Assembly (NCBI GenBank): GCA_965233585.1
Contig: CBDDTI010000747.1
Location: 544,001-608,000 of the forward strand
DNA length: 64,000 nucleotides
Direction of reading: 5' to 3'
Source of the DNA: a bacterium
GTDB lineage: Bacteria > SAR324 > NAC60-12
Part shown: positions 3,502 through 59,806 of the stretch, in pieces
Layout of the letters: every line of letters starts with the position of its first letter
Numbering within the stretch: position 1 is the first letter of the stretch
Made by a program: the position numbers and the translations under genes
The notes under the pieces: model-generated
Told to the model about the DNA's origin: nothing
What the model saw: the letters and a program-made list of their open reading frames with translations, nothing else
Databases searched by the model: none

Positions 3502-5682
3502 ATGCCACAGACTGTTCTGGTTCTTGAAGAAAGCCAAATTGTTCAAAATCTCATTGCACAAACGTTGAAACGTCATGATTTGGAGACTCATCAAGAACTT
3601 AATCCCCAAAAATTCTCTGATGCTCTTGCAGTTGGAGACCAAGTCCTTGTTCTCATAGACCTCAAACATTATTCTAAAATACAAACGTTATTAAGCTCAA
3701 GTATGCCTGCTGTGGCATTGCTAGATGCCAAGTCTCAAGTGGACAAACAAACGCTTCTTGACATGGGTTTTAAAGGGTGGCTTCGCCGTCCATTTGAGGC
3801 AAAAGACTTGATGAGCCAGATTCGTCTTGCATTGCCCGACCTCCATGCTCATTCGTCTGAAACTCTTTATGAAGAAGCATGCGAAACGCAAGATGTTGCA
3901 GGCGATGAGAAAAGCCTCATTCACAACCTCTTCTATGACCATTCGGAGACATCGCAGAAAGAGTTTGAAACCTTGAATCTTGAAGAAGTGCCAGATTTTG
4001 AAGATGACACGCTTTGTTTGGATAGCGAAGCATTAGAAGATGAACCTCAACTGGATTTTAGGGTGCCAGAATCCAACGAAGTATCGGAAGGTTTAGAGTT
4101 AGATGAGACATTCTCTGACAATTTTGGGACAGATGAAGGTCAAGATATTTTCAATGAAGAGGAGGAAGGTTTGGAGTTAGATGAGACATTCTCTGACAAT
4201 TTTGGAACAGATGAAAGTCAAGATGCTTTCAGTGAAAAAGAAGAAGGTTTGGAGTTAGATGAGACATTCTCTGACAATTTTGGAACAGATGAAAGTCAAG
4301 ATGCTTTCAGTGAAAAAGAAGAAGGTTTGGAATTGGACGAGATGCTTTCTGGCAATTTTGGGGCTGGGGACGAAGAAGACTTACCACAGTTTGATGCCTC
4401 CTCAAGTGAGACGTCACAATTTGAAAATGACATTCAGAGTTCAGTCATTGACGACTCAAATTCTGATTTAAATACCGATACCGATACAGAAGGTGACTTG
4501 TCAGATTTATTTGCAGAGAAAGAACACGGAATGCCTGATGCGATTCGCAAACACAGAGAAATGTCATTTGCTGGTAGCTCTTTGTTTCAAGCACATATTC
4601 CAGAAAAACAAAAGTTAAATCACGGTCTCACAGACATTAAATTGGGGCTGAATGACTTTGAATCAGAAATCAGCATTGATGATTACGACCCAGAACAAGT
4701 GCAATATCTCCGTAGAAGTGTCATGGATATTGTCCTCAATGCCAATGATTTTGACCCAGAAGTCCCTGATATTCCAGAAGAACAAAGTGAGTCTAGCATA
4801 CTAGAAATGGACTCTATGCTTTTGGAACTTGATGAAGATGAAAAATATGCAAACAGGGAATCCCAAAAAGAATCTTTGGAACAGCAAGTCGCAGATTTTG
4901 ATGATTTTGCAAGCCCCCCTGAACCAATGGAAGTTGGAGTTTTTGCCGAAGCAGAACCTTTTGGGTCTTTGAGCGATGAAGTGGAAATCAATATGCAACC
5001 TCAGGCGATGGCAAATTTTTCTCAAGAAGATGACATCAAACATTTGGAAAAGCAGATGCTAGACATGGAGCAAGGTAGCGACGTCCCAACCATAGACTTT
5101 GAAGAAGATGAAGAGTTTGACTTTGGAACAAGCCAACTAGATATTTCAGTGTCTGAAGAAAAGTCTGATGAAGAAGTCAATTTTGATGGCATCAATCCAG
5201 CTGAAACAGAGTCTTTGTCAATGTCTGCTGATGAATTGACTGATGACTTTTTTGAAGGTTCACAACAACTTGAACCTGAAAGTGAAGACGTAACAGACCC
5301 CAGTTTTGGGGTAGATTTTGAAATGCCGAGCAGTTTTGATGAGCAACCAGAGGATTCTGATGAAGTCAGTGGCACTGATGTCAATTTTGGTCAAGGTAGT
5401 GATGCCTTTGCCACAATGAACAGTTTTGATGAACAACCAGAGGCTGATGATGATGAGCTGTCTGTTGGTCTCCATCAAGAAGAAAGTCCCAGATTAGAGC
5501 TTGAGTCCCAAGATTTTCAAAATCCAGAAGCCAATCAATTCATTTTCCAGCCCAATACAAAAGGTTCGTTGGAAACAGCCTTGCAAAGTATGATCTCAAA
5601 CTCTGTGCAACAAGCCTTAAAAGATATGACTCCGCAACTTGTTGAACAAATTGCCAATCAGCTTAACTCACAAAAGGATTAG
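3502..5682 (+). CDS. Degenerate receiver domain + long acidic disordered linker + short C-terminal helical domain (RomR/PopZ-like polar scaffold)
   Basis: VLVLEES...WLRRPF pseudo-receiver; D/E-rich linker of over 500 aa; C-terminal VQQALKDMTPQLVEQI. Confidence 0.6.
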   Translation: MPQTVLVLEESQIVQNLIAQTLKRHDLETHQELNPQKFSDALAVGDQVLVLIDLKHYSKIQTLLSSSMPAVALLDAKSQVDKQTLLDMGFKGWLRRPFEAKDLMSQIRLALPDLHAHSSETLYEEACETQDVAGDEKSLIHNLFYDHSETSQKEFETLNLEEVPDFEDDTLCLDSEALEDEPQLDFRVPESNEVSEGLELDETFSDNFGTDEGQDIFNEEEEGLELDETFSDNFGTDESQDAFSEKEEGLELDETFSDNFGTDESQDAFSEKEEGLELDEMLSGNFGAGDEEDLPQFDASSSETSQFENDIQSSVIDDSNSDLNTDTDTEGDLSDLFAEKEHGMPDAIRKHREMSFAGSSLFQAHIPEKQKLNHGLTDIKLGLNDFESEISIDDYDPEQVQYLRRSVMDIVLNANDFDPEVPDIPEEQSESSILEMDSMLLELDEDEKYANRESQKESLEQQVADFDDFASPPEPMEVGVFAEAEPFGSLSDEVEINMQPQAMANFSQEDDIKHLEKQMLDMEQGSDVPTIDFEEDEEFDFGTSQLDISVSEEKSDEEVNFDGINPAETESLSMSADELTDDFFEGSQQLEPESEDVTDPSFGVDFEMPSSFDEQPEDSDEVSGTDVNFGQGSDAFATMNSFDEQPEADDDELSVGLHQEESPRLELESQDFQNPEANQFIFQPNTKGSLETALQSMISNSVQQALKDMTPQLVEQIANQLNSQKD
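4087..4362 (+). repeat. 78-bp (26-aa) intragenic tandem repeat, about 3.5 copies (EGLELDETFSDNFGTDESQDAFSEKE)
   Basis: Unit starts GAAGGT at 4087, 4165, 4243 and 4321. Confidence 0.9.
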
Positions 5683-5683
5683 T

Positions 5684-7141
5684 TTGGACATTCCATCTCT
5701 TTCTGACCCGCAAAAAGCGGCACAAACCATCTTTGAGCAACGTCTGGGAATCAGCGAACAGCTCATACGCAAAACCTTACAAACTGCCCTAAGTAGCTCT
5801 GGGAGCTTCGCAGAACTGTATTTTCAATACACACTTTCTGAATCTGTTGTTTTAGAAGAAAACCTTGTCAAGAGTTCATCTCAATCATTGGCAATGGGAG
5901 TGGGTATTAGAGTTTTGAAAGGAGAACAGACAGGTTATGCCTATTCTGAATCTTTTGATGAACGTTCTATGCAGAAAGCGGCATCAAGTGCGGCACAAAT
6001 TGCGTCAGGTGGACGTGTCAACCTTGATGATGCACAAATCTTTAATCAATCTGTCCCTAAAAACTATTACTCTGTTCAGCAGACCATTCACGACCTTCAA
6101 CTTGCTGAAAAGATTCGTTACTTGCGAATCATGGAACAAGAAGCACAGGCGTTTGATGAGCGGATTACAAAAATCACTGCCACTTTTTCCAATTCTCTTG
6201 AGTTCATACAAATTGTCAACTCCAATGGTCTATTTCTGCGAGATTCCAAGCCGATGTTTCGCATGTATGCACAATGCCTTGCACAAGAAAAAGACAATAG
6301 GCAGGTTGCAGGTTCGGGGGTTGGGGGACGCGTGGGATTAGACTTTCTCCAACAAAAAGATCATGCGATTCAGATTGCCAAAGAAGCCGCAAGTCGTGCA
6401 ACTCTGCTACTGGAAGCACAACAAGCCCCATCAGGGACGTTGCCTGTGGTACTTGGGGCAGGACAATCAGGAATCCTTTTGCATGAGGCAATCGGACACC
6501 CTCTTGAAGCTGATTTTAACCGAAAAGGTTCGTCTGCATACAGTGGAAGAATTGGAGAAAAAGTGGCATCAGACCTTTGTACAATCTATGATTCAGGGCA
6601 ATTTGAATACGATAGGGGGGCTATCAATTTTGATGACGAAGGCAACTTCCCCAAAGAAACGGTACTTATTGAAAATGGTATCCTCAGAGGATACATGCAA
6701 GACCACATCAGCGCACAAAGCTATCAAGTCAAGCCTTCAGGAAATGGAAGACGAGAATCCTTTGCCCACTATCCTTTGCCCCGAATGACAACAACCTATC
6801 TGAATGCAGGTAAATCTGACCCTGATGAAATCATTGCCAGTGTGGAAAAAGGTGTCTACTGTGAATCTTTTAGTGGCGGACAGGTGAATATTTCCAATGG
6901 AGATTTTGTTTTTGTGCCTGTCATTGCTTATATGATTGAACAAGGTAAGAAGACAGTCCCCATTAAAAATTTTACCTTAATAGGCAATGGACCTGATGTG
7001 ATGACCAAGCTGGTCATGGCAGGAAATGACTTTAAACTCAGTGAAGGGATTTGGACGTGTGGCAAAGATGGACAAGGTGTCCCTGTGGGTGTTGGGCTAC
7101 CTACTGTTTTGATCTCAGAAATGACGATTGGGGGCGCCTAA
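5684..7141 (+). CDS. tldD: TldD/PmbA family metalloprotease TldD
   Basis: LLHEAIGHPLEAD zinc motif, PRMTTT, CGKDGQGVPVGVGLPT; probable TTG start at 5684 after AAAGGA. Confidence 0.93.
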   Translation: MDIPSLSDPQKAAQTIFEQRLGISEQLIRKTLQTALSSSGSFAELYFQYTLSESVVLEENLVKSSSQSLAMGVGIRVLKGEQTGYAYSESFDERSMQKAASSAAQIASGGRVNLDDAQIFNQSVPKNYYSVQQTIHDLQLAEKIRYLRIMEQEAQAFDERITKITATFSNSLEFIQIVNSNGLFLRDSKPMFRMYAQCLAQEKDNRQVAGSGVGGRVGLDFLQQKDHAIQIAKEAASRATLLLEAQQAPSGTLPVVLGAGQSGILLHEAIGHPLEADFNRKGSSAYSGRIGEKVASDLCTIYDSGQFEYDRGAINFDDEGNFPKETVLIENGILRGYMQDHISAQSYQVKPSGNGRRESFAHYPLPRMTTTYLNAGKSDPDEIIASVEKGVYCESFSGGQVNISNGDFVFVPVIAYMIEQGKKTVPIKNFTLIGNGPDVMTKLVMAGNDFKLSEGIWTCGKDGQGVPVGVGLPTVLISEMTIGGA

Positions 7142-7856
7142 AAACAGTATGCAAACCATAGCAGAGTTGAATTTAGAGACTCGCATCAGGCAAAATGAAT
7201 ATACAGGTCGTGGTATTGTCATTGGCAGAAATTCTCAAGGACATTGGGTTCAAATTTACTGGATCTCAGGTAGGAGTTCAAATAGCCACAACCGTTGTCT
7301 AGTTGCCGAAGGGAGTGATTTACACGTCCAAACCATTAAACCCGAGATTGAACGTCCAGACTTGTTAGTTTATCGTGCTATGAGGGAGTCGGGGAGGCGT
7401 TACATCGTGTCAAATGGTCAGCACACTGACGCCATTTTTGAATCTGTGAAGGCTGGGAAGACAGTCGGAACAGGTCTTAAAAGATTTCAATATGAAGATG
7501 ACGAACCTCATTTTACACCGCGTATCGCAGGCTATTTGGATTGGTCTGGGTCAGAACCACTGTTGATGTTGGTCATTCTTAAAAAACACCCTCAATCCTC
7601 TGTATTGTTAAGGCAATTTTTTCTCTATGACAGTGTTCCATTAGGCTATGGCTATTGCCTCACCACCTATCAAGAAAATAGCAATCCTCTTGCTTCTTTT
7701 GAAGGCGAACCCTTTCTTGTGCCACTTTCAGGGGACGCTAACAGCATCTTGAAACAATATTGGCAGGCACTCAATCCAACTACAAAAATTGCTCTTGCTA
7801 CCAAAACAATAGACTCACAAAGTCAGTCTTCAATTTTCATTGAGAATAAATATTGA
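7128..7856 (+). CDS. IMP cyclohydrolase-like protein (PurO/Ntn-hydrolase family)
   Basis: YTGRGIVIG...YWISGRSSNSHNR...VSNGQHTD...YEDDEPHFTPRIAG; real start may be the ATG of MQTIA. Confidence 0.8.
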   Translation: MGAPKNSMQTIAELNLETRIRQNEYTGRGIVIGRNSQGHWVQIYWISGRSSNSHNRCLVAEGSDLHVQTIKPEIERPDLLVYRAMRESGRRYIVSNGQHTDAIFESVKAGKTVGTGLKRFQYEDDEPHFTPRIAGYLDWSGSEPLLMLVILKKHPQSSVLLRQFFLYDSVPLGYGYCLTTYQENSNPLASFEGEPFLVPLSGDANSILKQYWQALNPTTKIALATKTIDSQSQSSIFIENKY

Positions 7857-7912: not shown

Positions 7913-7986
7913 GGCGATGTGGCCGAGCGGTTAGGCAGAGGTCTGCAAAACCTTCTACACCGGTTCAAATCCGGTCGTCGCCTCCA
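7913..7986 (+). tRNA. tRNA-Cys (GCA)
   Basis: GGCGATG...CGTCGCC acceptor stem, anticodon loop CTGCAAA, GGTTCAAATCC T-arm, encoded CCA. Confidence 0.96.
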
Positions 7987-8001
7987 CACTTCAACTTTTC
8001 T

Positions 8002-8085
8002 GCCCGGGTGGCGAAATTGGTAGACGCACAGGACTTAAAATCCTGTGTCCGCAAGGGCGTGCCGGTTCGATTCCGGCCCCGGGTA
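8002..8085 (+). tRNA. tRNA-Leu (TAA), CCA not encoded
   Basis: GCCCGGG...CCCGGGT acceptor stem, CAGGA-CTTAAAA-TCCTG anticodon arm, long variable arm, GGTTCGATTCC. Confidence 0.95.
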
Positions 8086-8176
8086 GTTTCAGCCAAGATT
8101 CCCCAACAAAAAATAGTGGACACAGGCAGGATTGAGCAGAATCATAGTTGAAGTAGCACAGCATAAGTGCATCAGG

Positions 8177-9820
8177 TTATTCATCACCAATGATGGAAGC
8201 CTCAGGCTCTAATTGCTCAATTTCCTCCTTTAGCTTATCGGCTTGGGCTTGTAGCTCGGCAATTTGTTGCTCTAGGGCTTGTTGTTGCTCTGCAGCAATT
8301 TGTTGCAGTATGTCGGGGTCTTTCTCATACAGTTTCAATAGCTCATAGTCGCTGCTTTCATGCAGAGTTTGCAAGGCTTCAATCAGCTCCAGCAGGCGTA
8401 TTTGCAAGCTCTGATACATCTGCTCTAGGGCATGCAGGTTGGATTCCTCGCCAAGCTCTATGGTTTGCCAGCCCTGCTGTTGAATAAACTGTTCGGGGTT
8501 GGCGGCTATCTCCTCTAACAGGGCCAAGTCGCCTTCATCTCTGGCATGGTTAATCACCGCCATGAGCTTTTGGTAGGTCTCCATTTTTTCGGGGTCATTG
8601 TGGTGGCGGTCGGGGTGAAACAGGCGGATGAGCTTGTTCCACAAGGGTTTGATAGCTTTTTTTTGTTCATCAGTTAAGTTCTTTTTGCCACTGGCAGCTT
8701 GCTCGGCTTGCTCTTGCTCTTGTTCGGCTTGCTCTTGCTCTTGTTGAAATGGCTCGTTGAGAGACTCTGCCTCCTCCATACCCTGCTGCATTAAAACATC
8801 TAGGTATTGACTGCGGTAATAAACTATCTGCTGGAGCTTGTTGCGTTTGTGGTGGTAGTGGCTGACCTGTAAAAACAGCTTGGCTTTGAGGGCATCTACG
8901 GCGTTTTTGTCGGTAGTGTATTGTGCCTCTAGCTCAGCTAAACGGTTGCGCAGATTGTTGATAAGGGCTTCTAGCTCTTGTTTTCGTTGCGTGCCATACA
9001 CGGTTAAACTGGTGACATTGCTTGGGCTGGATGTGGGGGTAGATGAGGGATCAAGGGCAATGAATTCTGCCAGTGCCTCCAGTTGTGTCAAATACCATTT
9101 GCCCATCGCTTGGCTACGTTCGTTGTTTGATGAGGCTAACCACTCCAGCCAATCTTTTAGTGCTTGATGACTGCGTGCCTCGCGAAAATCACAGCCCTTA
9201 TATTTTCCAAACGCCAAACGACTGGGATACCAAGGTTGCTGGCAAAAATCCACCACCGCCTGCCAAGTGTTTAGCTCTCGTTGGTCGGCTAGGGGTTGCA
9301 ACACTTGCTGCAGCAGGTCAATCACCGTTTGCACATCGTCTAAGGCAGTGTTTGTACCTCGCTCAGATAGGCGGTAAAACTGCCTTAAAGTTTGTAATTT
9401 GCAGTTGCCTGCGGCGACTGGGTCTAACAAACGTCTAGTGAGTTCCAAGGCACAAAAGCCGCGTCTGCCAATGGGTGCAATACCTAACCGTTGCCATTCG
9501 GGGGTGAGTACTTGGTTTAGGTCGTAGTTTAGGTTGTAGGTTACCAGCGGTGCATCAGCTACATACTGCCTCAATGCCTCGTGTACTTCGCTGGGTGGGT
9601 TGCCATCTCGTTCTAAAATCTCCCTTGTGTAACCGTTTGTGCGAGAGGCTTCGGGCGGTATAGCGGCATCGTGGTTTAATAATTGCCTAAACGGTTCTCC
9701 CACTGCTTGCCAGCCACACATAGTTTGGGCAGCGATCTCTAGGGCAAAAACGGGTCGCTTAAAGCCGGTGGTTTCGGTATCTAATAAGACCCATTTGGTG
9801 TTGTTTATCGGGGGAGTCAT
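8177..9820 (-). CDS. Fusion of DEDD 3'-5' exonuclease (DnaQ-like) + FGKYKG helical module + coiled coil + J-domain (HPD) + C-terminal coiled coil
   Basis: LLDTETTG (ExoI), YNLNYD (ExoII), NTALDD (ExoIII), LAFGKYKG, WNKLIRLFHPDRH...MAVINHA J-domain. Confidence 0.85.
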   Translation of the reverse strand: MTPPINNTKWVLLDTETTGFKRPVFALEIAAQTMCGWQAVGEPFRQLLNHDAAIPPEASRTNGYTREILERDGNPPSEVHEALRQYVADAPLVTYNLNYDLNQVLTPEWQRLGIAPIGRRGFCALELTRRLLDPVAAGNCKLQTLRQFYRLSERGTNTALDDVQTVIDLLQQVLQPLADQRELNTWQAVVDFCQQPWYPSRLAFGKYKGCDFREARSHQALKDWLEWLASSNNERSQAMGKWYLTQLEALAEFIALDPSSTPTSSPSNVTSLTVYGTQRKQELEALINNLRNRLAELEAQYTTDKNAVDALKAKLFLQVSHYHHKRNKLQQIVYYRSQYLDVLMQQGMEEAESLNEPFQQEQEQAEQEQEQAEQAASGKKNLTDEQKKAIKPLWNKLIRLFHPDRHHNDPEKMETYQKLMAVINHARDEGDLALLEEIAANPEQFIQQQGWQTIELGEESNLHALEQMYQSLQIRLLELIEALQTLHESSDYELLKLYEKDPDILQQIAAEQQQALEQQIAELQAQADKLKEEIEQLEPEASIIGDE

Positions 9821-11145
9821 CGGATCACCTCTACCTCATCATCGCAACCCAGCCATTTTAAGTTAGGGTTTTGGGAGACATCTAGTGCCGTGAGTTGGTT
9901 GTACTCGCACCACAGCCGTTCTAAGTTAGGGTTTTGGGAGACATCTAGTGCCGTGAGTTGGTTGTCCTCGCACCACAGCTCTTGTAAGTTAGGGTTTTGG
10001 GAGACATCTAGTGCCGTGAGTTGGTTCCTTCTGCAATCCAGCCGTTCTAAGTTAGGGTTTTGGGAGACATCTAGTGCCGTGAGTTGGTTCCTTCTGCAAT
10101 CCAGCCGTTCTAAGTTAGGGTTTTGGGAGACATCTAGTGCCGTGAGTTGGTTGCTTATGCAATCCAGCCGTTCTAAGTTAGGGTTTTGGGAGACATCTAG
10201 TGCCGTGAGTTGGTTGCTTCTGCACCGCAGACATTCTAAGTTAGGGTTTTGGGAGACATCTAGTGCCGTGAGTTGGTTGTACTCGCACCACAGCCGTTCT
10301 AAGTTAGGGTTTTGGGAGACATCTAGTGCCGTGAGTTGGTTGTCCTCGCACCACAGCCGTTCTAAGTTAGGGTTTTGGGAGACATCTAGTGCCGTGAGTT
10401 GGTTCCTTCTGCACCACAGCTCTTGTAAGTTAGGGTTTTGGGAGACATCTAGTGCCGTGAGTTGGTTGTCCTCGCACCACAGCCGTTCTAAGTTAGGGTT
10501 TTGGGAGACATCTAGTGCCGTGAGTTGGTTCCTTCTGCAATCCAGCCGTTCTAAGTTAGGGTTTTGGGAGACATCTAGTGCCGTGAGTTGGTTGCTTCTG
10601 CAATCCAGCCGTTCTAAGTTAGGGTTTTGGGAGACATCTAGTGCCGTGAGTTGGTTGTCCTCGCACCACAGCCGTTCTAAGTTAGGGTTTTGGGAGACAT
10701 CTAGTGCCGTGAGTTGGTTGTCCTCGCAATCCAGCCGTTCTAAGTTAGGGTTTTGGGAGACATCTAGTGCCGTGAGTTGGTTGCTTCTGCAATCCAGCCG
10801 TTCTAAGTTAGGGTTTTGGGAGACATCTAGTGCCGTGAGTTGGTTGGGGGTTTTGGAACCCGCTTCATTGCCACATTTGAGAATTTGCAGATTGGGATAG
10901 CGGCTCACATCCAGTTCGGTCAGCCCTTGGTCGCTGACATCCAGCTCCGTCACGCTGTAGTCCAAATGCTCGGCGACTTGGCTACTTTTTTGAACTAAGG
11001 CACGGGCGCGTGCTAGGGCATCGTTGGCGACCTCGTCTATATGCCGTTGAGCTGCCGGGCTGAGGCTTGGTTGGCTGCTTTGGCGAACAACAGGCAGTTG
11101 TTGGTCTGCTTTGTGGGTATGATCGCTGTTTTCATCACTGTTCAT
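9817..11145 (-). CDS. Cytoplasmic leucine-rich repeat protein (21-aa LxxLxCxxNxL repeats, IRREKO-like class)
   Basis: 16 NQLTALDVSQNPNL frameworks; no signal peptide; SD AGGAG upstream; stop overlaps the next ATG (ATGA). Confidence 0.93.
   Translation of the reverse strand: MNSDENSDHTHKADQQLPVVRQSSQPSLSPAAQRHIDEVANDALARARALVQKSSQVAEHLDYSVTELDVSDQGLTELDVSRYPNLQILKCGNEAGSKTPNQLTALDVSQNPNLERLDCRSNQLTALDVSQNPNLERLDCEDNQLTALDVSQNPNLERLWCEDNQLTALDVSQNPNLERLDCRSNQLTALDVSQNPNLERLDCRRNQLTALDVSQNPNLERLWCEDNQLTALDVSQNPNLQELWCRRNQLTALDVSQNPNLERLWCEDNQLTALDVSQNPNLERLWCEYNQLTALDVSQNPNLECLRCRSNQLTALDVSQNPNLERLDCISNQLTALDVSQNPNLERLDCRRNQLTALDVSQNPNLERLDCRRNQLTALDVSQNPNLQELWCEDNQLTALDVSQNPNLERLWCEYNQLTALDVSQNPNLKWLGCDDEVEVIR
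9859..10845. repeat. 63-bp tandem array: 16 identical 42-bp blocks separated by 15 variable 21-bp segments
   Basis: Constant TAAGTTAGGGTTTTGGGAGACATCTAGTGCCGTGAGTTGGTT at 9859+63n (n=0..15). Confidence 0.97.
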
Positions 11146-17612: not shown

Positions 17613-18179
17613 TTACAAAACCCCTAAAATCAAAACTGGAATATCAATGTCTGAAACACCTCTTTTTTCTAAATCCCAGACAAATTGTTCAAAATAAGAA
17701 ACTCCTGATGACATTTCATCGGCTAGTTCTTTAATCGGAACAATTTCTATGCCTGCATCAATAATGTTCAGCTTCTTAAAGATAGTCATCTTTGCACAGA
17801 CGTTATAAACCATAAACGCATACTTTCCAAATTGCACTTCAACTCCTAGTCTTTCTTTCACAAAATCCATATCTCTAAATGCACCTTGTTTTAAAGGTTT
17901 AGGTTGATAATTTTTTGTGTAATATTGTGTTGGGTAGTTACATTTTTCTTTATGATTGTGCCAATTTCTAGCTGAAAAATATTTTTTAAATTCTTGATTT
18001 AACATAGCAGGACTGTACAGTAGTTTGCCCTGCATTGTTTTCTCTTGACTTATTTTATCTTTGCACTTCTCAGAATCTACACATTGAACGACTTCATAAG
18101 TTTGACTCAACAATTCTGCAAAGTGATTTTGAATAAACTCCTTACCACCATTAAAGCTAAATTCTCCAGCAACAATCAT
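17613..18179 (-). CDS. Type II restriction endonuclease, BglII/BstYI family
   Basis: DMDFVKERLGVEVQFGKY (D...E-x-Q catalytic motif), IDIPVLILG; ATG at 18179 overlaps the MTase stop. Confidence 0.85.
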   Translation of the reverse strand: MIVAGEFSFNGGKEFIQNHFAELLSQTYEVVQCVDSEKCKDKISQEKTMQGKLLYSPAMLNQEFKKYFSARNWHNHKEKCNYPTQYYTKNYQPKPLKQGAFRDMDFVKERLGVEVQFGKYAFMVYNVCAKMTIFKKLNIIDAGIEIVPIKELADEMSSGVSYFEQFVWDLEKRGVSDIDIPVLILGVL

Positions 18180-19084
18180 AAGCTCCACTGCAATGGAAAT
18201 TGTGCGACTTTTTCGGTACCACTTGGCTGATGGATGGGTTTCCCGATTGGTCTTATTCTCAGGTTTCCCGAAAGAAATTGCTCAACTCTTTGCTTGGCAA
18301 TAGAGCAATACCTCTCTTCTTTTTCAACGCAAACAGGTAACCGATGATGCTTCAAACAAGCAATAGCAGTACTTCCTACCCCACCAAAGGGGTCTAGAAC
18401 CATATCATGTTTGTTGGTAAAAGCTAGGATGCAACGTTCCACTAACTCTATTGGGAATTGACAAGGGTGTTCTGTTTTTTCAGGGTGATTAGACTTGACG
18501 TTGGGAATATCAATCATACCTAAATCAAACTCTGTTTGAAGTAGCTCCCAATAATCTGATGGGTTTTTACCCTTTGGGTTTCCGCTTAATTCTCCTTTTC
18601 TTTTGCCTTTAAAATGTCGTTTCCCGGGATATTTTGAGGGAATACGGACTTCATCTAAATTGAAGATATAATTCTCATTTTTAGAAAACCAAAGCAAAGT
18701 TTCATAGCGTCCAGAAAGTCTTTTTTGTGCATGTAACCCATGGTTAAAGTGCCAAATGATACGGTTTCTTAACTGTAAACCTAGCTTTTTAAAAATGGGG
18801 TAAAAATACATATCCAGAGGAAAGATTTCCCCTTTTTCAACATAATTTCCCACTTGCCAACAAAAACTTCCTGTTGGCTTCAGTTTGGGAACAAGTTGAG
18901 AGATAATTGATTCTTGCCAAGCTAAATAATTTGCTAAAGACGTTTTTTCTTCGTAGTTTTTACCGACATTATAAGGAGGAGAAGTGATAATCAGCTGAAA
19001 TTGACCATCAGCAAAATCTTTGATTTTTTCTTCTATTTCTCCTTGAAAAATAGATTGGCTTTCATCAAAAAAACAACTCTGCAT
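18176..19084 (-). CDS. Site-specific DNA methyltransferase, beta class (N4-C/N6-A)
   Basis: ITSPPYN (motif IV) precedes HPCQFP and VLDPFGGVGST (motif I). Confidence 0.92.
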   Translation of the reverse strand: MQSCFFDESQSIFQGEIEEKIKDFADGQFQLIITSPPYNVGKNYEEKTSLANYLAWQESIISQLVPKLKPTGSFCWQVGNYVEKGEIFPLDMYFYPIFKKLGLQLRNRIIWHFNHGLHAQKRLSGRYETLLWFSKNENYIFNLDEVRIPSKYPGKRHFKGKRKGELSGNPKGKNPSDYWELLQTEFDLGMIDIPNVKSNHPEKTEHPCQFPIELVERCILAFTNKHDMVLDPFGGVGSTAIACLKHHRLPVCVEKEERYCSIAKQRVEQFLSGNLRIRPIGKPIHQPSGTEKVAQFPLQWSL

Positions 19085-19092
19085 TGTCAAAA

Positions 19093-20949
19093 TCAAGAAA
19101 GAAGTGTTAGTAATTCATGGTTTAGCAAAGAAAGCCCGTGTTGAGTTAGGACTGACTCAACGTGAAATTGCATAGTGCAGAAGTGTTGACCACGCAAGCC
19201 ATAAACTTCAAAAGACGTTTCATCGTAACAAATCTTTACTTTTTGAACAGCAGAAGAATGCTTCACAACAAAAGTGCAATAAAATCCAACTTTTTGAGAA
19301 GTTCCAAACCAGTTTACTTCTTTTTGAATGCCTTGCAAAGGAACATCTTTGCATGCTATGTCAAAACCTAAGAGAATGCTGGTAATTTGATGCCCTAAAC
19401 AGACTCCTAAAAATACTTTTTGACGTTCCAAAAGCGTTTTTGCAATGTCTTGAAGTGCCATGATTTTGGGAGATTTCAGGTCATTTGGATTTCCTGGACC
19501 TGGACCAAGGACTGTCAAGTCCGAATCATCTTTTTCTATGTTGTAATCTTTCCATGATACGACTTTGGTTTTGAATCCTAAATGTTTCAAAAGATGCTTT
19601 AGCATGAGGCAAAAATCATCTTCATTGTGAATCAATACCACCTGCTTATCTTGAAATTGAGCGGTGACGTCTTGTTCAGATTGATTGTCAAGCCAGAATG
19701 GAGACAAAAAGCGGTTTCTTTGTTCTAAAATTGCTTGTAAAGAAAATTGAGTTTGAAGAGTTGGCAACAAATTAGGTGGGGGTTGAGCAGGAGGGTTGAT
19801 GATATTTTCAAGCAATCCTGCCATTTTTGCTTCTGTTTCAAGTGTTTCTTCTGTGGGAATAGAGTCCCTCACCAACGTTGCACCAACACGGAAGCCACAC
19901 GTGCCGTTGCTGTCTATTTCTACAGTTCTAATCAAAATGGGGCTGTCAGCAGTTTCCCCTTGCTGGTCTCTTCCAAGCAAAAGCAAAGCGCTGGAATAGT
20001 ATCGTCTTGAATCAGTTTCATATTTGCGAATGATGCGGCAAGCATTTTCAACAGGACTACCTGTCACGGTGGCGGCATACATAGAATCACGCACCATTTG
20101 AATTAAATCTCTGTTGCCTGTGCCTTCTAAAACATATTCTGTGTGAATCAATTTGGACATTTCTTTGAGAAACGGACCTTGAATGCGTCCGCCATGATTA
20201 CAGATGTTTGCCATCATTTTAAGCTCTTCATCAAGCACCATAAACAATTCATTAATCTCTTTGGGATTTTCTAAAAATTTTAAAAAATCATCTTGAAATG
20301 TTTCAGGGGAAAAAGACTTGCCAACCTTCCTAAAGGTTCCGCTGATGGGGTTCATTTTGGCAAGAGACCCTTGCACTGTCAGATGCCTTTCAGGCGTTGC
20401 TCCAATGAAAAAACTTGAGCCATCAAAAAAGATAAAAACCCAGTATGCTCCTTGTTCATTCTGCAACAAATTACGATAGATGCTTAAGGCTTTGTTCAGA
20501 GAAAACTCTTGGATTTGTGCTGTGCCGTCCCGCATGATGACAAAGTTTGCTCCTTCTCCCCTGCCAATCTCATGCTCAATAATTTGCTGAACTAATCTAT
20601 TGTAATCCTGTTGAGAGGTTTTATAATTCATTCCATCTTGGAAGGCTATTTTTTCTTTTGGAAGAGATTGCAAGGCTTCCTGTTTATTCCACCAAGTTTG
20701 ATTTTCAACATGGAGAGTGAGAATGGGCAAATCATCTTCTTTTACCACAAAGTTTCTTTCGCGAATTTGTGAAAAAGGCAAAAGACTCAATGTGTCAAAA
20801 GTAGAGGTGCCAGTTGCTTGGGAATGTCTTGGAATATCTTGTAGTTTTTGAAATGATGAAATGAAGCCTTCTAAGGCAATAATGTCTTTTTCATCATGCC
20901 TTTTAATCAAGGCAAAAGGTTTTTCAAAAGTCATCGGTCTATGTGCCAT
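19093..20949 (-). CDS. PhzE-like / fused TrpE(G) anthranilate or ADIC synthase
   Basis: Chorismate-binding domain (GEGANFV, MNPISGT, ELFMVLDEELKMM, TVTGSP) fused to GATase (GPGPGNP, GVCLGHQ, QFHVES). Confidence 0.85.
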   Translation of the reverse strand: MAHRPMTFEKPFALIKRHDEKDIIALEGFISSFQKLQDIPRHSQATGTSTFDTLSLLPFSQIRERNFVVKEDDLPILTLHVENQTWWNKQEALQSLPKEKIAFQDGMNYKTSQQDYNRLVQQIIEHEIGRGEGANFVIMRDGTAQIQEFSLNKALSIYRNLLQNEQGAYWVFIFFDGSSFFIGATPERHLTVQGSLAKMNPISGTFRKVGKSFSPETFQDDFLKFLENPKEINELFMVLDEELKMMANICNHGGRIQGPFLKEMSKLIHTEYVLEGTGNRDLIQMVRDSMYAATVTGSPVENACRIIRKYETDSRRYYSSALLLLGRDQQGETADSPILIRTVEIDSNGTCGFRVGATLVRDSIPTEETLETEAKMAGLLENIINPPAQPPPNLLPTLQTQFSLQAILEQRNRFLSPFWLDNQSEQDVTAQFQDKQVVLIHNEDDFCLMLKHLLKHLGFKTKVVSWKDYNIEKDDSDLTVLGPGPGNPNDLKSPKIMALQDIAKTLLERQKVFLGVCLGHQITSILLGFDIACKDVPLQGIQKEVNWFGTSQKVGFYCTFVVKHSSAVQKVKICYDETSFEVYGLRGQHFCTMQFHVESVLTQHGLSLLNHELLTLLS

Positions 20950-41884: not shown

Positions 41885-44800
41885 TTACAACTCCCTTTCC
41901 AAAACCGCCTCTTTCCTGCTCCCCGATGTATCCACCACATTTTGAGCTTCGTTTATTTTTTGTTCTAATTGTCCTACTTTTTGAACAAGGGATTTTTGAA
42001 TATTTAGAGGAGGCAAGGAGCTTTGAATATTGTAAATATTATTTCTATTGATTCCTCCTGAACCAGAACCTACTTTCATAGAAGGTAAGTTTAACGATTT
42101 CAATAGATAAAATATAAATTTTAATTCATTATCATCAGAATCCAATAACTTGACGTAAAAGGTAGTATCAATAGGAGTGCAATTTTTTTCTGACCAATTA
42201 ATTTCTCCTGCACTTCCTTTCCTACCAACTATAACACAAGGAGCTTTCACCTCAAAATTATTATGAGTTCCTACAATACCGTTTGAACCGTACACAGGAA
42301 ACTCTCCTTGTACTCTTTCATTCTCTGGTAATGAAATACCATATTCTAAAGTAAATACTTCCCCCAACTTTCTCACCTCATGCCCTCCATTTACTACCGC
42401 TTGAACTTCCTTTTCTATCTCATTTTTATAAGTGCTTATCTTTTCTTGTGCTTTTGCTACTTCCTTATCTATTGCTTCACACTTCACAACTATTTTTTGC
42501 TGAATATCTAAGGGAGGGAGTGGGATTTTTATTTGTTTCATCTTTTCAGCATTTAAGTTCGGTTGTGTTAATGCTATAGTTAAATTGTTGACTTGCTGCC
42601 AATACAAATCCGTATTGTAAAACGAAAAAAGATACGCTGGAAGTATTTTTTCATTTAAGGTTAATCTTACTAGATAAGAGGCGAAAATTAATTTTTCATT
42701 TATATTTTTATAGAAAAACATTCTTCCTGTACTACCACTTCTTGCGATAACAATATCATTCTGTTTTAGTAAAAAATCTTTTTTTATCTCTACGGTAGGA
42801 TTGATATATTTCTTATCCTCGTTTTTTAATGTTCCATCTTCATTAATATCTGTTATTCTTAAATATCTTATTTCTCCTTTGTTTTCTGCTTTTGCAGTAT
42901 ATCCATATTGAGTATTACAGACTTCTCCTAAATTTATAATTGGATACTTACTTTCTACCTCATTATGTATTTTAGGGTTTAAACTAAGGCTGTTACTAAA
43001 TTCCGTCCTTTCAAAATCCAGCATATCGGTTAAACGGGCAATTTTTACATGGTCTTTTAAGGTTTCGTCAACAGCGGTAATGGGCTGTTTTTCAAAGTGG
43101 TTTAAAATATAGCTATTGGCTTTTTCAGGGTTTAGATGATTGTTTTCATCAAACATTTTATTTTGGGCTTGTCCCTTTTCGTTTCGCTTGATTTTAATCC
43201 CTTCGCTTCCCTTTCTATTAGAAAATTCATAACCTAAAAAGTCTTTGGCGGTTTGTTTTTCACCCGATTGCACGATAATCGTTTGTTGATGCTTATAGGC
43301 TTCGCTTACAGTTTTCACTTTTCTAAAATCATCTTTTAAGGTCAGCATAAAATAATAGAATTTTTCCTGTTCTATTTCCAATACCTTATTTAAAAATGCT
43401 GTATTTAATCTTGTTTCTTGATCTTTAAGAGATAAATGTTTAAAACTGGTTTTCTTCTTTAAGTTTTCTGTGGAGGGTAATTTGTTAAACCAGTCTTGAT
43501 AATTTTTGTAAAAAGAAGCGTCTTGAATGTTTTCATTAGGGTTTTTATCAATCAGGGTTTTGTAATCTTCTTTATTCAATCCACGGTAAGATAAAAACAT
43601 ATCTAAAAGTTTATCCCTGTCTAAATAATTCTCTTTTTTCCCCGTGGTGAAAATTTCATCGGCAACCACCCCTCTATCATAGGCAAACCAAAAATGTCTT
43701 TTTTCTAAAAACAACACTACGGTATTGGTTCCCGTTGCTCCAAAAGTGCCGCTACCAAAAGAAGCAATGGCTTTGATATTAAAATGTTCTAAAATTATTT
43801 TTCGGGTCGCTCTATGTAAATCCGAATCATTGCTTAAAATAGAAGAAGGTAAAATAATCGCCGCCCTGCCACCTTCTTTTAAAAGTTGTGCCGTGCGTTC
43901 TATAAAAAGATTTTCTATTTCTTTGGAACTTTCGGTTAAATACTTAAAAAGCGAAAATTGTTTTTCATTAACGGGTAAATAGTTCTTAAAAGATTTAATG
44001 GAATAAGGCGGATTAGACAAAATCACATCAAACAGATTTTTTTCTTCCTTACAATCTAATCTGTCATGATCTTCCAACCCATCACCATAAATGATATTGG
44101 CATCGCCATCACCATTGAGAAAACAAGCAATTTGTGAAGTCCTTGCCAAACGGTAATCTTTCTCTATGCCAAAAATATAGTCCTTTGCCCAAAGCGTATT
44201 GTCTTTGTAAGATTTTGCATTATTCAATATAACTTCTTTGTCTCCCTCAACAACATCTATCTTGTCAATTTGGCTTAAATCCAATCGGTCAATGTTTTTT
44301 TGTAGTTCATCAATGCTTTCAGTTAAAAAATGCCCTGCACCACAGGCATAATCCAAAATTTTAGGTAGGAAACTTTTTGTTCCTGCTTGTAATTTTTTGT
44401 CTGTTATGTGATTCAATCCTAAAGACAAAATCATAAACCGAACAATCGGTACAGGGGTAAAAAACTGCCCTTCGTTTTGTTTGATCCCGTGATTTAGTAT
44501 CAATTCAAAAAAATCGCCCAGTATTTGTTGCTTTTTGGTATAGCGAAAACGGTAATTTTGTAGCATTTTTATCACTTCGTTTAACACCCTTGCGTTTTCT
44601 TTAAACAAGGTTTCGTTATGAACCTCTTTTAGAGCAAATTCATTTTGAGTGTAATACTTGATTTGCTTAAAAATATGTTCTATTTCTCGTATTTTTGATA
44701 CTTTTGAGTAAGAATCTATAATATCTTTAATTTTTTGATCTTCAAAATATACAATTTCTTGCCCTAAATGCTCTTCCATTCCCTTAGCATAAAGTCTTTG

Positions 44801-45724
44801 CAGTCTGTCTTGAATGTTTTCAGGGGTATCTTCTCCCTCCTTGACTTGAAAATCCAAAACGGCATGACCGCCTTTTTCTTCATCTACAATTTTACAAAGC
44901 AGCAAAGACAAAAACCTGTTAAACGCATTGGCGTTGTCCGAAATGTTGTTGTGCCTTAAAATTTCCATAAATTGGTTAAAAATCCCCGAAGCCCCCGTAA
45001 AGGGTTTTAAATCTTTCTTTTTTAGAGGCTTTAATTCAATTTCATAGGCATTAACATCGTATTCAAAAATACCGTTATAATGAAAATAGAGGTTGAAAGT
45101 TTCTTTCCAAACCTCAAAAAGTGCTTTGTTGTTTTTGGCTTTTTCGTATAGCTTAATGCTTTCATCTCCATTCTTAAATGCCTCTATGTCTTCTTTTCTA
45201 TCTTGAGTTTTGATGATGGCGTTTTCATAAGTTATTTTTTCTTCTTTAAAATCAGAAGCGTATAGACACAGGTATTTTGTATCTTTTTCTTGTTGAAAAT
45301 AAGAAAAAAGTTGTCCGCCATTGGATAGCATTTTTTGTTTTTCTTTTTCATATTCGTCGCCCCAAGTTTTGCATTCAATCAGAAGCAACGGTTTTTCTTC
45401 ATGATCTCTTACTAAAATATCGGCTCGTCCGCCACTTGCTCCGTGTCCTACTTTCCATTTTGGTTCAAGCTCTAAATGTTGAGGTAAATATCCTTTCTCC
45501 AAAAGTCTATGCACGCATTCAAACACGACAAAATTCTCTGCAGATGAAAAATTACAAGTTTGCCGTTCGTTAACTTTTAGCCCTTGATTTTCAGGGTAAA
45601 TGATTTGACCTTTGGCAAAATCTACTTGTAAACTAACTTCCTTAAAGGTTTTAGTAAAAACATTGTTCTTTTCCTCAAAAGCTAACTTTTGTAATAGTTT
45701 TTTAAAATTTTCTTTTGTTATCAT
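41885..45724 (-). CDS. Single-chain type IIG restriction-modification enzyme (HsdR_N nuclease + N6-A MTase + two HsdS-like TRDs)
   Basis: RADILV...LIECK nuclease; GQFFTP, LDYACGAGHF, NPPY; PLPPLDIQQKIV and LPPLNIQKSLV TRD repeats. Confidence 0.9.
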   Translation of the reverse strand: MITKENFKKLLQKLAFEEKNNVFTKTFKEVSLQVDFAKGQIIYPENQGLKVNERQTCNFSSAENFVVFECVHRLLEKGYLPQHLELEPKWKVGHGASGGRADILVRDHEEKPLLLIECKTWGDEYEKEKQKMLSNGGQLFSYFQQEKDTKYLCLYASDFKEEKITYENAIIKTQDRKEDIEAFKNGDESIKLYEKAKNNKALFEVWKETFNLYFHYNGIFEYDVNAYEIELKPLKKKDLKPFTGASGIFNQFMEILRHNNISDNANAFNRFLSLLLCKIVDEEKGGHAVLDFQVKEGEDTPENIQDRLQRLYAKGMEEHLGQEIVYFEDQKIKDIIDSYSKVSKIREIEHIFKQIKYYTQNEFALKEVHNETLFKENARVLNEVIKMLQNYRFRYTKKQQILGDFFELILNHGIKQNEGQFFTPVPIVRFMILSLGLNHITDKKLQAGTKSFLPKILDYACGAGHFLTESIDELQKNIDRLDLSQIDKIDVVEGDKEVILNNAKSYKDNTLWAKDYIFGIEKDYRLARTSQIACFLNGDGDANIIYGDGLEDHDRLDCKEEKNLFDVILSNPPYSIKSFKNYLPVNEKQFSLFKYLTESSKEIENLFIERTAQLLKEGGRAAIILPSSILSNDSDLHRATRKIILEHFNIKAIASFGSGTFGATGTNTVVLFLEKRHFWFAYDRGVVADEIFTTGKKENYLDRDKLLDMFLSYRGLNKEDYKTLIDKNPNENIQDASFYKNYQDWFNKLPSTENLKKKTSFKHLSLKDQETRLNTAFLNKVLEIEQEKFYYFMLTLKDDFRKVKTVSEAYKHQQTIIVQSGEKQTAKDFLGYEFSNRKGSEGIKIKRNEKGQAQNKMFDENNHLNPEKANSYILNHFEKQPITAVDETLKDHVKIARLTDMLDFERTEFSNSLSLNPKIHNEVESKYPIINLGEVCNTQYGYTAKAENKGEIRYLRITDINEDGTLKNEDKKYINPTVEIKKDFLLKQNDIVIARSGSTGRMFFYKNINEKLIFASYLVRLTLNEKILPAYLFSFYNTDLYWQQVNNLTIALTQPNLNAEKMKQIKIPLPPLDIQQKIVVKCEAIDKEVAKAQEKISTYKNEIEKEVQAVVNGGHEVRKLGEVFTLEYGISLPENERVQGEFPVYGSNGIVGTHNNFEVKAPCVIVGRKGSAGEINWSEKNCTPIDTTFYVKLLDSDDNELKFIFYLLKSLNLPSMKVGSGSGGINRNNIYNIQSSLPPLNIQKSLVQKVGQLEQKINEAQNVVDTSGSRKEAVLEREL

Positions 45725-50524: not shown

Positions 50525-52447
50525 ATGGGAAAAGTCATAGGTATTGATTTAGGAACAACCAACTCATGTGTTGCAATTATGGAGGGTGGAGACCCTAAAG
50601 TAGTTCAAAATGCAGAAGGAACACTGACCACACCTTCTATGGTAGCATTTAATGATTCAGGTGAACGTTTGATTGGGCAGGTAGCTAAGCGACAAGCTGT
50701 CACTAATCCTGCACGGACTGTCTTTTCAGTGAAACGAATGATGGGACAAAAAATTGGCTCAAAGGAAGTGCAAAAGCTCAAAGAAGTTGCCCCCTATCAT
50801 GTCAGTGAAAGCTCCAACGGTCTGGCTTGTGTAGAAGTTGATGACAAAAAATACACCCCCCCTGAAATCTCTGCATTCATCTTACAAAAAATCAAACAAA
50901 CTGCAGAGGACTATCTGGGAGAACCTGTGACAGAAGCAGTCATCACAGTCCCTGCCTATTTCAATGACAGTCAACGACAGGCAACCAAAGATGCAGGAAA
51001 AATTGCAGGTCTTGATGTGTTACGTATCATCAACGAGCCAACAGCCGCAGCGCTTGCCTATGGGCTAGAAAAAAACAATGACCAAAAAATTGTTGTGTTT
51101 GACTTGGGTGGTGGAACTTTTGATGTCTCCATTCTTGAAATTGGTGATGGTGTGTTTGAAGTCAAAGCGACCAATGGCGACACTTTTCTGGGTGGTGATG
51201 ACTTTGATACCAGAATCATTGACTTCCTTGCTGATGAATTTAAAAAGGAACAAGGAATTGACCTCCGTGCTGACAAGATGGCACTCCAAAGGCTCAAAGA
51301 AGCTGCAGAAAAAGCAAAACATGAGCTTTCCGCAAGTTCGGAGACAGAAGTCAACTTGCCTTTTATCACTGCTGACGCATCAGGACCCAAACATCTTAAC
51401 GTCAAAATCACACGGGCTAAGTTTGAGCAACTTGTTGCCGATTTAGTTGAAAAATGCCTTGTCCCCTGTGAAAAAGCATTAAAAGACTCTGGCTTCAGTG
51501 CAAGTGATATTCACGAAGTCATTTTGGTTGGTGGCATGACCCGTATGCCAAAAATTCAAGAAAAAGTGAAAGAGTTTTTTGGCAAAGAACCCCATAAGGG
51601 CGTCAATCCTGACGAAGTTGTTGCCATCGGTGCTGCAATCCAAGGTGGCGTTTTAAAAGGCGATGTCAAAGATGTTCTACTCCTTGATGTCACACCACTT
51701 TCATTGGGAATTGAGACATTGGGAGAAGTGATGACCAAGTTAATTGAACGCAACACAACTATTCCCACTAAGAAAAGTCAGGTGTTCTCTACTGCCGCAG
51801 ACAATCAACCTGCTGTAAGCATTCACATTCTACAAGGTGAACGAGAGATGGCACGGGACAACAAAACTTTGGGAAGGTTTGAGTTGGTTGGCATTCCTCC
51901 TGCCCCACGTGGCACCCCTCAAATTGAAGTGACTTTTGACATTGACGCCAATGGTATTGTGCATGTCAGTGCCAAAGACTTAGGGACAGGCAAAGAACAG
52001 CAAATCCGTGTCACCACTTCTAGCGGATTGTCAGAAAGTGAGATTGAGAAAATGGTGCAAGATGCAGAGAAATTTGCTGAAGAAGACAAGAAGACTCGCG
52101 CAAGAGTGGAAGCAAAAAATGAGGCAGAATCGTTGATCTATCAAACTGAAAAATCAGTGAATGAGCTTGGGGATAAACTTCCAGCAGAAGACAAAACTGC
52201 TGTTGAAAATGCCATCAGTGACTTGAAAGGTACGCTAGAAAATGGCGATGCTGAAGCCATTCGTGCAGGGACTCAAACTTTAACCGAAGCCTCTCACAAA
52301 CTGGCAGAATTGCTTTATGCCAAACCAGAAGAAGGTGCTGAACCCACTCCAGAACCAGAACCAGAACCTTCACAACAACAATCATCAAACGAGACTAAAA
52401 ACGATGATGATGTCATTGATGCTGATTACGAAGAAGTTAAAAAATAA
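50525..52447 (+). CDS. dnaK: Chaperone DnaK
   Basis: [32 protein letters not shown]. Confidence 0.99.
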
Positions 52448-59046: not shown

Positions 59047-59806
59047 GGCATTGTTAAGTAATAAGTGATAGCTGATTATTCCGTTTTGCCATGAACAAAA
59101 GAACAGAATATTGTAATGCTTTAAGAGACTTGCTGTAACATTTGGTTTTCCTTCTCATTCTTGCCAAGAAATGTCTCAAGAGAGAATTATACCCTTCTAT
59201 CGTGTATGTTTCTGCCTTGGAACATGTATGAATTTCTTTGGGAATGACTTGTTTGTAAGCCTTGCAGTGATCAGTCATCACCTGAAGAGGTTTTGTTTCC
59301 TTGACCTTGTCCCATAAATGCCTACAGGCTTTTGAGTCTCTGTTTCCAAGCACACAATTGATAAATTGCTTCCCACATCTATCAACAGCAATCCAGAGCC
59401 AGCAGTAGTTTTTTTTGACTGGATGTAGGTGTGCATTTCATCAATTTCCATAATTTCAATGTCTGTGTCCTTTCTTAATGCCTTGAGCTGTTCGCCAAAA
59501 CTACAGACCCAATTATAAACTGAAACATGAGAACAATTCAGCAAACGACCGATTGACCTGAAACCAAGACCCTCCAAATACAACTCTAATGCTCTTCTTT
59601 TGATCTGTGGTGAGATTTGACCACGATAGGACTTGGTATATTGATAGTTGCAGGCATTGCAACGCCTCCTCGGTTTACCATATAAGAAACCATTCTTAAC
59701 CGTCTTCTCACTTTCACATCTAGGACACGACTTCATTGCTACACCATGACTATCAATTCAATTAAATGAACTTAATATCGCATATCACTTATAGTTTAAC
59801 AATACC
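59047..59806 (-). mobile_element. Complete IS1-family insertion sequence (760 bp)
   Basis: 24-bp IRs GGCATTGTTAAGTAATAAGTGATA / GGTATTGTTAAACTATAAGTGATA (20/24 match); 8-bp TSD GGATATCT at 59039-59046 and 59807-59814. Confidence 0.96.
59054..59736 (-). CDS. IS1 transposase InsA/InsB expressed by -1 frameshift
   Basis: InsA CPRC...CNAC Zn finger and HTH; A8C slippery site 59408-59416; -1 frame gives DEMHTYIQSKKNYCWLWIAVD...MTD...IEGYN DDE core. Confidence 0.92.

Follow-up and report, generated by a model that had tools for sequence, protein, structure and literature searches.

The window analyzed here, a 64,000-nucleotide stretch of contig CBDDTI010000747.1 from a bacterium of the SAR324 lineage, carries on its minus strand a two-gene operon encoding a leucine-rich repeat (LRR) protein and Exo-CC-J, a protein in which a DEDDh exonuclease domain is followed by an ExoX-like C-terminal module and then by a J-domain with a coiled coil on either side. 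We tentatively propose that the pair consists of an LRR adaptor and a J-protein that recruits DnaK and binds 3' ends, and that it most likely acts in conflict with mobile elements; judged from the sequence, this is a real possibility that we place somewhat short of an even chance. The LRR gene comes first (positions 9817 to 11145; 442 amino acids), has an AGGAG sequence 8 nucleotides 5' of its ATG, and matches Pfam LRR_4 with an E value of 6.7e-67. Its TGA stop codon overlaps the ATG start codon of the Exo-CC-J gene (8177 to 9820; 547 amino acids) as ATGA (9817 to 9820), an overlap already noted in an earlier sequence-only reading and confirmed from the open reading frames (ORFs). A Shine-Dalgarno-like run, GAGGTG, lies just upstream, and from the overlap we infer that translation of the two genes is coupled.

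In the proposed mechanism, the LRR protein would be a cytoplasmic solenoid whose scaffold is invariant and whose concave face varies; it would capture a specific protein or nucleoprotein ligand on that face and hand it to Exo-CC-J. The J-domain of the partner would then trigger ATP hydrolysis by the host DnaK, which would in turn clamp or remodel the ligand, and the exonuclease unit would hold or trim a nucleic-acid 3' end. The likeliest setting would be the recognition of foreign (phage or mobile-element) proteins, with Hsp70 supplying the ATPase. There is a precedent for chaperone-mediated phage sensing, because host DnaJ is required for the antiphage protein bNACHT25 to sense a phage coat protein (PMC12169576).

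The Exo-CC-J protein and its family

The DEDDh (DnaQ-like) exonuclease domain of Exo-CC-J comprises residues 8 to 180 (positions 9281 to 9799; all features of the two proteins given below are on the minus strand) and was delimited by Pfam RNase_T, an AlphaFold2 (AF2) model, and Foldseek. RNase_T matches residues 11 to 169 (E value, 2.6e-10; 41.5 bits versus a cutoff of 24), and the four acidic metal ligands, D14, E16, D100, and D162, are all present. The AF2 model of residues 1 to 262, built on 94 aligned sequences, has a predicted local distance difference test (pLDDT) score of 96.4 and gave 258 PDB matches at an E value of ≤0.001, led by DnaQ, epsilon, and ExoX. The template modeling (TM) scores were 0.85 for the DnaQ of S. 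thermophilus, 0.81 for Cas2-DEDDh, 0.79 to 0.80 for Pol III epsilon, and 0.76 to 0.77 for ExoX (4fzx and 4fzy). NCBIfam matches were of the DEDD, epsilon, and ExoX types, all far below their cutoffs; the ExoX model (PRK07983) aligned to residues 12 to 235 (E value, 8.2e-7; 28.4 bits versus a cutoff of 202). The ExoX-like C-terminal module occupies residues 186 to 256 (9053 to 9265) and contains the motif FGKYKG (residues 204 to 209; 9194 to 9211). It was assigned from this motif and a weak, subcutoff match to PF20600, ExoX-like_C (E value, 0.02; 14.7 bits versus a cutoff of 26.5), a family matched at an E value of ≤1 by 6 of 17 family members; no solved structure of such a module was found among the Foldseek PDB matches.

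The sequence-only reading had described a DnaQ-like nuclease joined to an FGKYKG module, long coiled coils, and an intact HPD J-domain. This architecture stands, but the nuclease is not fully intact. Codon 157 is AAC (9350 to 9352), which puts Asn where motif III (H-x4-D) has its catalytic His; the role of this His in DEDDh enzymes is well established. The residue is His in 211 of 216 aligned relatives of 500 to 620 amino acids, the set used for all conservation counts, and in all 16 sequences of alignment A1. In the same 216 relatives, the metal ligands are retained in 210 (D14), 205 (E16), 210 (D100), and 203 (D162). Because Asn replaces the DEDDh His, the Exo-CC-J of the window is probably a poor nuclease, and for the same reason binding of an end is more likely than fast cutting; from the retained metal ligands we infer that the protein would keep its grip on a 3' end.

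The second half of Exo-CC-J is predicted to be a long helical stalk with a J-domain midway. The first coiled-coil-like segment (residues 273 to 377; 8690 to 9004) is modeled by AF2 as helices 273 to 346 and 355 to 377 with pLDDT values of about 81 to 93, and the second (residues 462 to 537; 8210 to 8437) is modeled as helices 462 to 488, 490 to 500, and 504 to 537. Between them lies the J-domain core (residues 384 to 448; 8477 to 8671), recognized by a subcutoff Pfam DnaJ match, by the family profile, and by the HPD tripeptide, H402-P403-D404 (8609 to 8617). Pfam DnaJ (PF00226) matches residues 385 to 421 with an E value of 0.0019 and 18.7 bits, below its gathering score of 27.8; it is matched at an E value of ≤1 by all 17 A1 family members, and one relative (P0288) scores 36.7 bits. 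In the full-length AF2 model, residues 384 to 429 form a helix-loop-helix (helices 384 to 398 and 410 to 429) with HPD at residues 402 to 404 in between. The family profile matched about two dozen solved J-domain chains over helix II, HPD, and helix III (E values of 8e-4 to 0.9), with helix I unmatched. The full-length model has a pLDDT of 72.5, and Foldseek returned no PDB match to it at an E value of ≤0.001. HPD is nearly invariant in the 216 relatives (H in 215, P in 215, and D in 216); for FGK-KG, the counts are 215 (F), 214 (G), 197 (K), 210 (K), and 205 (G). The best explanation of these features is that Exo-CC-J is a class C J-domain protein, and stimulation of DnaK is predicted. A match to effector-associated domain 10 (EAD10; E values of 0.05 to 0.13) occurred in 1 of 17 family members and was treated as chance.

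Exo-CC-J is not a local invention. A word-indexed search gave 1168 proteins at an E value of ≤1e-3 among 8000 scored, and the 119 relatives listed are 534 to 617 amino acids long, with 47 to 56% identity and 92 to 100% coverage of the query. Their only names, "exonuclease domain-containing protein" and "DNA polymerase III epsilon-like," come with Pseudomonadales, Haliea, Giesbergeria, Roseiarcus, and Lamprobacter as sources. When 1.84 billion representatives were searched exhaustively with a profile, there were 6841 matches at an E value of ≤1e-3 and 375 at an E value of ≤1e-30. These sequence comparisons place Exo-CC-J in a widespread, uncharacterized family of ~545 amino acids. A single-protein search of genome contigs returned two loci (L001 and L002), which matched over 32 and 39 residues (E values of 3e-4 and 8e-4) and were dismissed as spurious.

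Full-text literature searches turned up neither an account of a protein joining an exonuclease to a J-domain nor one of an LRR partner, although bioRxiv supplements and other files may list the architecture. The main text of the large J-domain survey PMC10410713 contains none of the terms exonuclease, nuclease, RNase_T, and PF00929, and one of its supplements contains none of exonuclease, RNase_T, and PF00929; term look-ups in PMC13069673 did not find the architecture either.

The coiled coil-J-coiled coil half also exists alone, in proteins of about 275 amino acids, and in combination with an N-terminal GYF_2 domain or with membrane segments at the C terminus (P0315, P0281, and P0302). The relatives grouped with this half are P0292, P0297, P0298, P0307, P0281, P0302, and P0315. 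In protein atlas clusters of the corresponding size, Verrucomicrobiota was the phylum listed most often for the few members that have a record.

The leucine-rich repeat array and fusions of the exonuclease module

The LRR protein consists mainly of an array of 16 tandem 63-bp (21-codon) units (9838 to 10845), identified by unit alignment and by Tandem Repeats Finder (period, 63; 15.9 copies); Pfam LRR_4 matches 13 stretches of the protein (220.4 bits versus a cutoff of 27). Across the 16 units, 50 of the 63 nucleotide columns are invariant, including every third-codon position of 16 codons, and the 13 columns that vary are all within codons 15, 16, 18, 20, and 21. A single difference in the array is synonymous, and several of the alternatives differ at all three bases (GAT/TGG and AGA/GAG). 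The variable codons correspond to the x positions of LxxLxCxxN, which we take to be the exposed, ligand-binding residues of the concave face in LRR structures. The pattern implies that the scaffold is homogenized with the binding residues retained or shuffled, and in-frame unequal recombination could change the number and order of the units. The LRR had been called diversifying before; the variation seen is that among the units of the one array, on the predicted binding face. A 336-amino-acid ORF antisense to the array (9890 to 10900, plus strand) is not a gene but arises from the in-frame repetition of the 63-bp units.

Fusions tie the exonuclease module to LRRs and to chaperone modules in other lineages. 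When the 150 best representatives (23 at an E value of ≤1e-3 and 127 at ≤1e-4) were scanned with Pfam, the exonuclease module was found fused to LRR_4 in two (P0274 and P0332), together with Sel1 and DnaJ_C in one (P0306), and with DnaJ_C in one (P0290). GYF_2 was present in nine, eight of which carry the exonuclease module, the ninth (P0315) being GYF_2 plus the coiled coil-J-coiled coil half, and YqaJ was present in two. A search with P0274 gave, among the 120 matches listed, three clusters of exonuclease-LRR fusions belonging to one lineage (P0274, P0391, and P0392) and 19 Exo-CC-J proteins (P0393 to P0411) with 76 to 91% identity to the exonuclease half of P0274. Two LRR proteins that stand alone, P0428 and P0423, match its LRR half at 68% identity, the pre-LRR domain included. 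The LRRs of this lineage are of the Cys-containing, 21-residue type seen in the window, with 50 to 54% identity, and the junction lies just after the ExoX-like module and about ten residues into the LRR protein, as might be left by a single deletion between adjacent genes. P0332, which lacks the FGKYKG module and has an LRR just 24 to 29% identical, is an independent fusion. A Sel1-exonuclease protein (P0284) looked chimeric, with Sel1 running straight into the middle of the exonuclease, and was not counted. The fusions offer independent though sparse support for a functional tie that joins the exonuclease module with LRR-type binding domains and with the Hsp70 system.

A weaker resemblance extends to the nonrepeat N-terminal region of the LRR protein (residues 1 to 62; 10960 to 11145), which shares a weak motif with the pre-LRR region of P0428-type proteins. 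In a shuffle test, 3 of 2000 shuffles reached the score obtained with P0428, and 22, 88, and 106 of 2000 did so for the other three proteins, making a common motif only suggestive. Prediction of a complex between full-length Exo-CC-J and the LRR protein gave scores of 0.04 and 0.01 against a mark of 0.32, values that say nothing for or against an interaction.

The two proteins had been described as lacking signal peptides, and their hydrophobicity bears this out. Within the first 60 residues, hydrophobic runs reach at most 4 in Exo-CC-J and 3 in the LRR protein, the maximum Kyte-Doolittle values (KD19) are 0.87 and 0.04, respectively, and neither protein has a membrane segment. These properties bear on the idea that the LRR protein is exported, as an effector or adhesin directed against a eukaryotic host or prey, its adjacency to Exo-CC-J being meaningless. 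Its best family matches are the LRR regions of InlJ (E value, 1.5e-79), SlrP, and XopAC, its N terminus is polar and rich in Ser and Gln, and its search relatives are mostly surface proteins of Bacteroidota and Firmicutes with T9SS, SLH, or InlB-B domains. However, those relatives share the repeats alone (an exonuclease domain was found in none of the 120 listed), and the InlJ, SlrP, and XopAC matches are likewise confined to repeats and far below the family cutoffs. The protein has no signal peptide, sorting domain, or anchor, its gene is coupled by ATGA to that of Exo-CC-J, and the Cys-type LRR is fused elsewhere to a cytoplasmic exonuclease module. We consider export very unlikely.

We give equally little credence to the LRR protein being a stoichiometric inhibitor of the nuclease, comparable to the LRR ribonuclease inhibitor or to a first-encoded type II antitoxin, with the exonuclease silent until its release. 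An upstream gene overlapping a downstream toxin gene is the usual toxin-antitoxin layout, which the ATGA overlap with the nuclease gene resembles, and binding of a nuclease by an LRR protein has a precedent in the ribonuclease inhibitor. Yet a nuclease without its catalytic His leaves little to inhibit, both proteins are far bigger than those of usual toxin-antitoxin pairs, and the exonuclease and the LRR occur fused in one chain in other lineages.

Acquisition, defense context, and neighborhood of the operon

Two tRNA genes on the plus strand adjoin the operon: tRNA-Cys (gca; 7913 to 7986), found with ARAGORN and scoring 62.9 bits with the Rfam tRNA model, and tRNA-Leu (taa; 8001 to 8086), found with both programs. 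The operon and tRNA-Leu converge, with 90 bp between the ORF end and the tRNA, as had been read from the sequence, and the block between 8 and 11 kb is indeed GC richer (0.49 to 0.50 versus about 0.40 for the whole window). The shift is also seen in the GC content at third codon positions (GC3), which is 0.527 in the Exo-CC-J gene and 0.560 in the LRR gene versus 0.328 to 0.409 in the ten other genes measured. It is not a repeat effect in the LRR gene, because the nonrepeat first 300 nucleotides also have a GC3 of 0.55, and since it is common to both genes they look as if they were acquired together. The two probably represent a coacquired functional unit. A compositional shift adjoining a tRNA gene is as expected of a tRNA-associated island, and horizontal acquisition of this foreign-looking operon is the best explanation of its composition. 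The earlier claim of a horizontally acquired module is therefore upheld by the GC3 shift common to both genes but finds no backing in an integrase or an att repeat. Promoter and terminator scans gave nothing above shuffled sequence, and Rfam matched the two tRNAs and nothing else.

The window also encodes DnaK (50525 to 52447), as had been pointed out, though within an ordinary chaperone operon with DnaJ, GrpE, and HrcA at 48.8 to 53.6 kb, 40 kb from the pair.

Exo-CC-J might instead be a conserved cellular cochaperone and nuclease, for example, one that serves repair or quality control by directing DnaK to 3' ends of DNA or RNA with protein bound to them, which was transferred here; the LRR protein would then be a lineage-specific adaptor or a passenger and play no part in immunity. 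In favor of this, the family is large, with 375 representatives at an E value of ≤1e-30, its conservation spans the whole protein, it was not found in plasmid records, no PADLOC system includes it, and ExoX, the nearest named enzyme, is a repair exonuclease. Against this, the operon is compositionally foreign and patchy, the best relative being about 55% identical, and its nuclease gene is translationally coupled to that of a hypervariable LRR. The module swapping seen in the family (LRR, Sel1, DnaJ_C, GYF_2, YqaJ, and membrane tails) is also more typical of conflict systems. A purely cellular role appears unlikely on balance, though it deserves serious consideration.

An immune role of the LRR and Exo-CC-J pair is plausible from its sequence. 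The sequence-only reading had not recognized the architecture among named defense systems, and PADLOC-DB 2.0 agrees. Exo-CC-J matched a generic CRISPR-associated DEDDh model (62.6 bits; E value, 1.4e-17) and, weakly, PDC-S48 (37.8 bits), and the LRR protein had one marginal match. Identification as PDC-S48 was rejected, the matches being weak and restricted to the exonuclease part, with none of the 32 relatives scanned above 78 bits.

Several observations weigh against a mobile-element conflict system. (i) No system-specific PADLOC-DB 2.0 model was matched by the pair, the Exo-CC-J family had no match in 72,556 plasmid records, and 50,697 phage records gave two weak matches, at 28% identity and to the exonuclease domain only, in Staphylococcus phages. 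(ii) The 3' end of tRNA-Leu (22 nucleotides) has no second copy in the window with ≤3 mismatches allowed, a repeat search at the island borders found no flanking repeats, no integrase or transposase was found at the operon borders among the window ORFs scanned, and the flanking genes, a PurO-like gene and one for aspartate kinase, are housekeeping genes. (iii) The full-length conservation of the 119 listed relatives (47 to 56% identity) across several proteobacterial orders looks more like that of a conserved cellular gene than that of a fast-evolving defense gene. (iv) LRR fusion was seen in just 2 of 150 representatives and LRR is a promiscuous domain, and the nuclease of the window protein lacks the catalytic His.

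Other genes of the window include the weakly PurO-like one (7128 to 7856, plus strand; 242 amino acids), whose match to the archaeal-type IMP cyclohydrolase PurO is below the cutoff (E value, 2.3e-15) and which overlaps the end of a TldD gene. A 726-amino-acid, extremely acidic protein (3502 to 5682, plus strand) contains three and a half copies of a 26-residue unit (EGLELDETFSDNFGTDE...) and has no NCBIfam match. On the minus strand, an adenine-specific DNA methyltransferase-like gene (18176 to 19096; E value, 1.3e-33, below the cutoff) overlaps a 191-amino-acid ORF (17613 to 18188) without a known family, and no restriction partner was found among the ORFs scanned. A 1279-amino-acid chain (41885 to 45724, minus strand), about 30 kb from the pair, joins a region resembling MADS MAD2-like or BREX-like DNA methyltransferases to one resembling type I restriction S subunits (E values of 5.3e-35 and 3.3e-19, far below the cutoffs) and may be a fused restriction-modification or defense enzyme. 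The sole mobile-element gene among the scanned ORFs of at least 150 amino acids is a 152-amino-acid IS1-family transposase fragment (59278 to 59736, minus strand; E value, 6.5e-27, just below the cutoff).

Significance and comparison with known systems

The pair is built from known domains; what makes it of note is the unstudied, widespread Exo-CC-J family, the recurring fusions with LRR, Sel1, and DnaJ_C, and the unusually clean array with a hypervariable face. J-domain proteins decide where Hsp70 acts, and a widespread bacterial family in which a J-domain is joined to a DNA-end nuclease, undescribed in the literature searched, would link the chaperone network directly to nucleic-acid transactions. 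The LRR array is in itself a clean natural example of a scaffold that stays invariant while only the binding positions vary. If the LRR is a receptor, the pair would be a specific sensor built on the cell's own Hsp70 rather than on a dedicated STAND NTPase, which fits the dependence of bNACHT25 on DnaJ (PMC12169576). In its boldest form, the proposal would make the pair the first immune sensor without an NTPase of its own, with a cytoplasmic LRR receptor that reads foreign proteins through a recombining hypervariable face on a TALE-like invariant scaffold, a J-domain effector that uses the housekeeping DnaK as its ATP-driven switch, and an ExoX-like 3'-end module as the output. The wider Exo-CC-J family, with its Sel1, DnaJ_C, and GYF variants, would then be a large unrecognized class of chaperone-coupled conflict systems. 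We regard this extended version as rather improbable.

Among characterized enzymes, E. coli ExoX shares with Exo-CC-J the DEDDh fold followed by a small FGK[YFH]KG module. However, ExoX has about 220 amino acids and contains neither a coiled coil nor a J-domain, and Exo-CC-J differs from it in having both, as well as in the Asn at the catalytic His position. By sequence (8h18; E value, 2.5e-9) as well as by structure, the exonuclease domain comes closest to CRISPR-associated DnaQ or Cas2-DEDDh and to Pol III epsilon, a likeness at the domain level only; none of the 40 other window ORFs of at least 150 amino acids that were scanned matched a Cas or polymerase family. With class C (type III) J-domain proteins such as DjlA, Exo-CC-J has in common an HPD J-core, a basic helix II, and client or targeting domains unlike those of DnaJ, whereas the position of its J-domain midway in a long helical stalk and the nuclease nature of its partner domain set it apart.

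The LRR protein resembles the internalin InlJ in its 21-residue units and in the Cys of LxxLxC but lacks the signal peptide, the anchor, and the B-repeat of InlJ, scores 268 bits with the InlJ model versus a cutoff of 1700, and has units that are identical at 50 of 63 nucleotide positions. As a system, the proposed combination of a repeat-domain sensor and a nuclease-type output is similar to bNACHT25 and other bacterial NLR-related or Avs sensors. Unlike these, the pair has no NACHT or STAND NTPase, so that DnaK would supply the ATPase, and the J-domain is built into the effector instead of being provided by host DnaJ.

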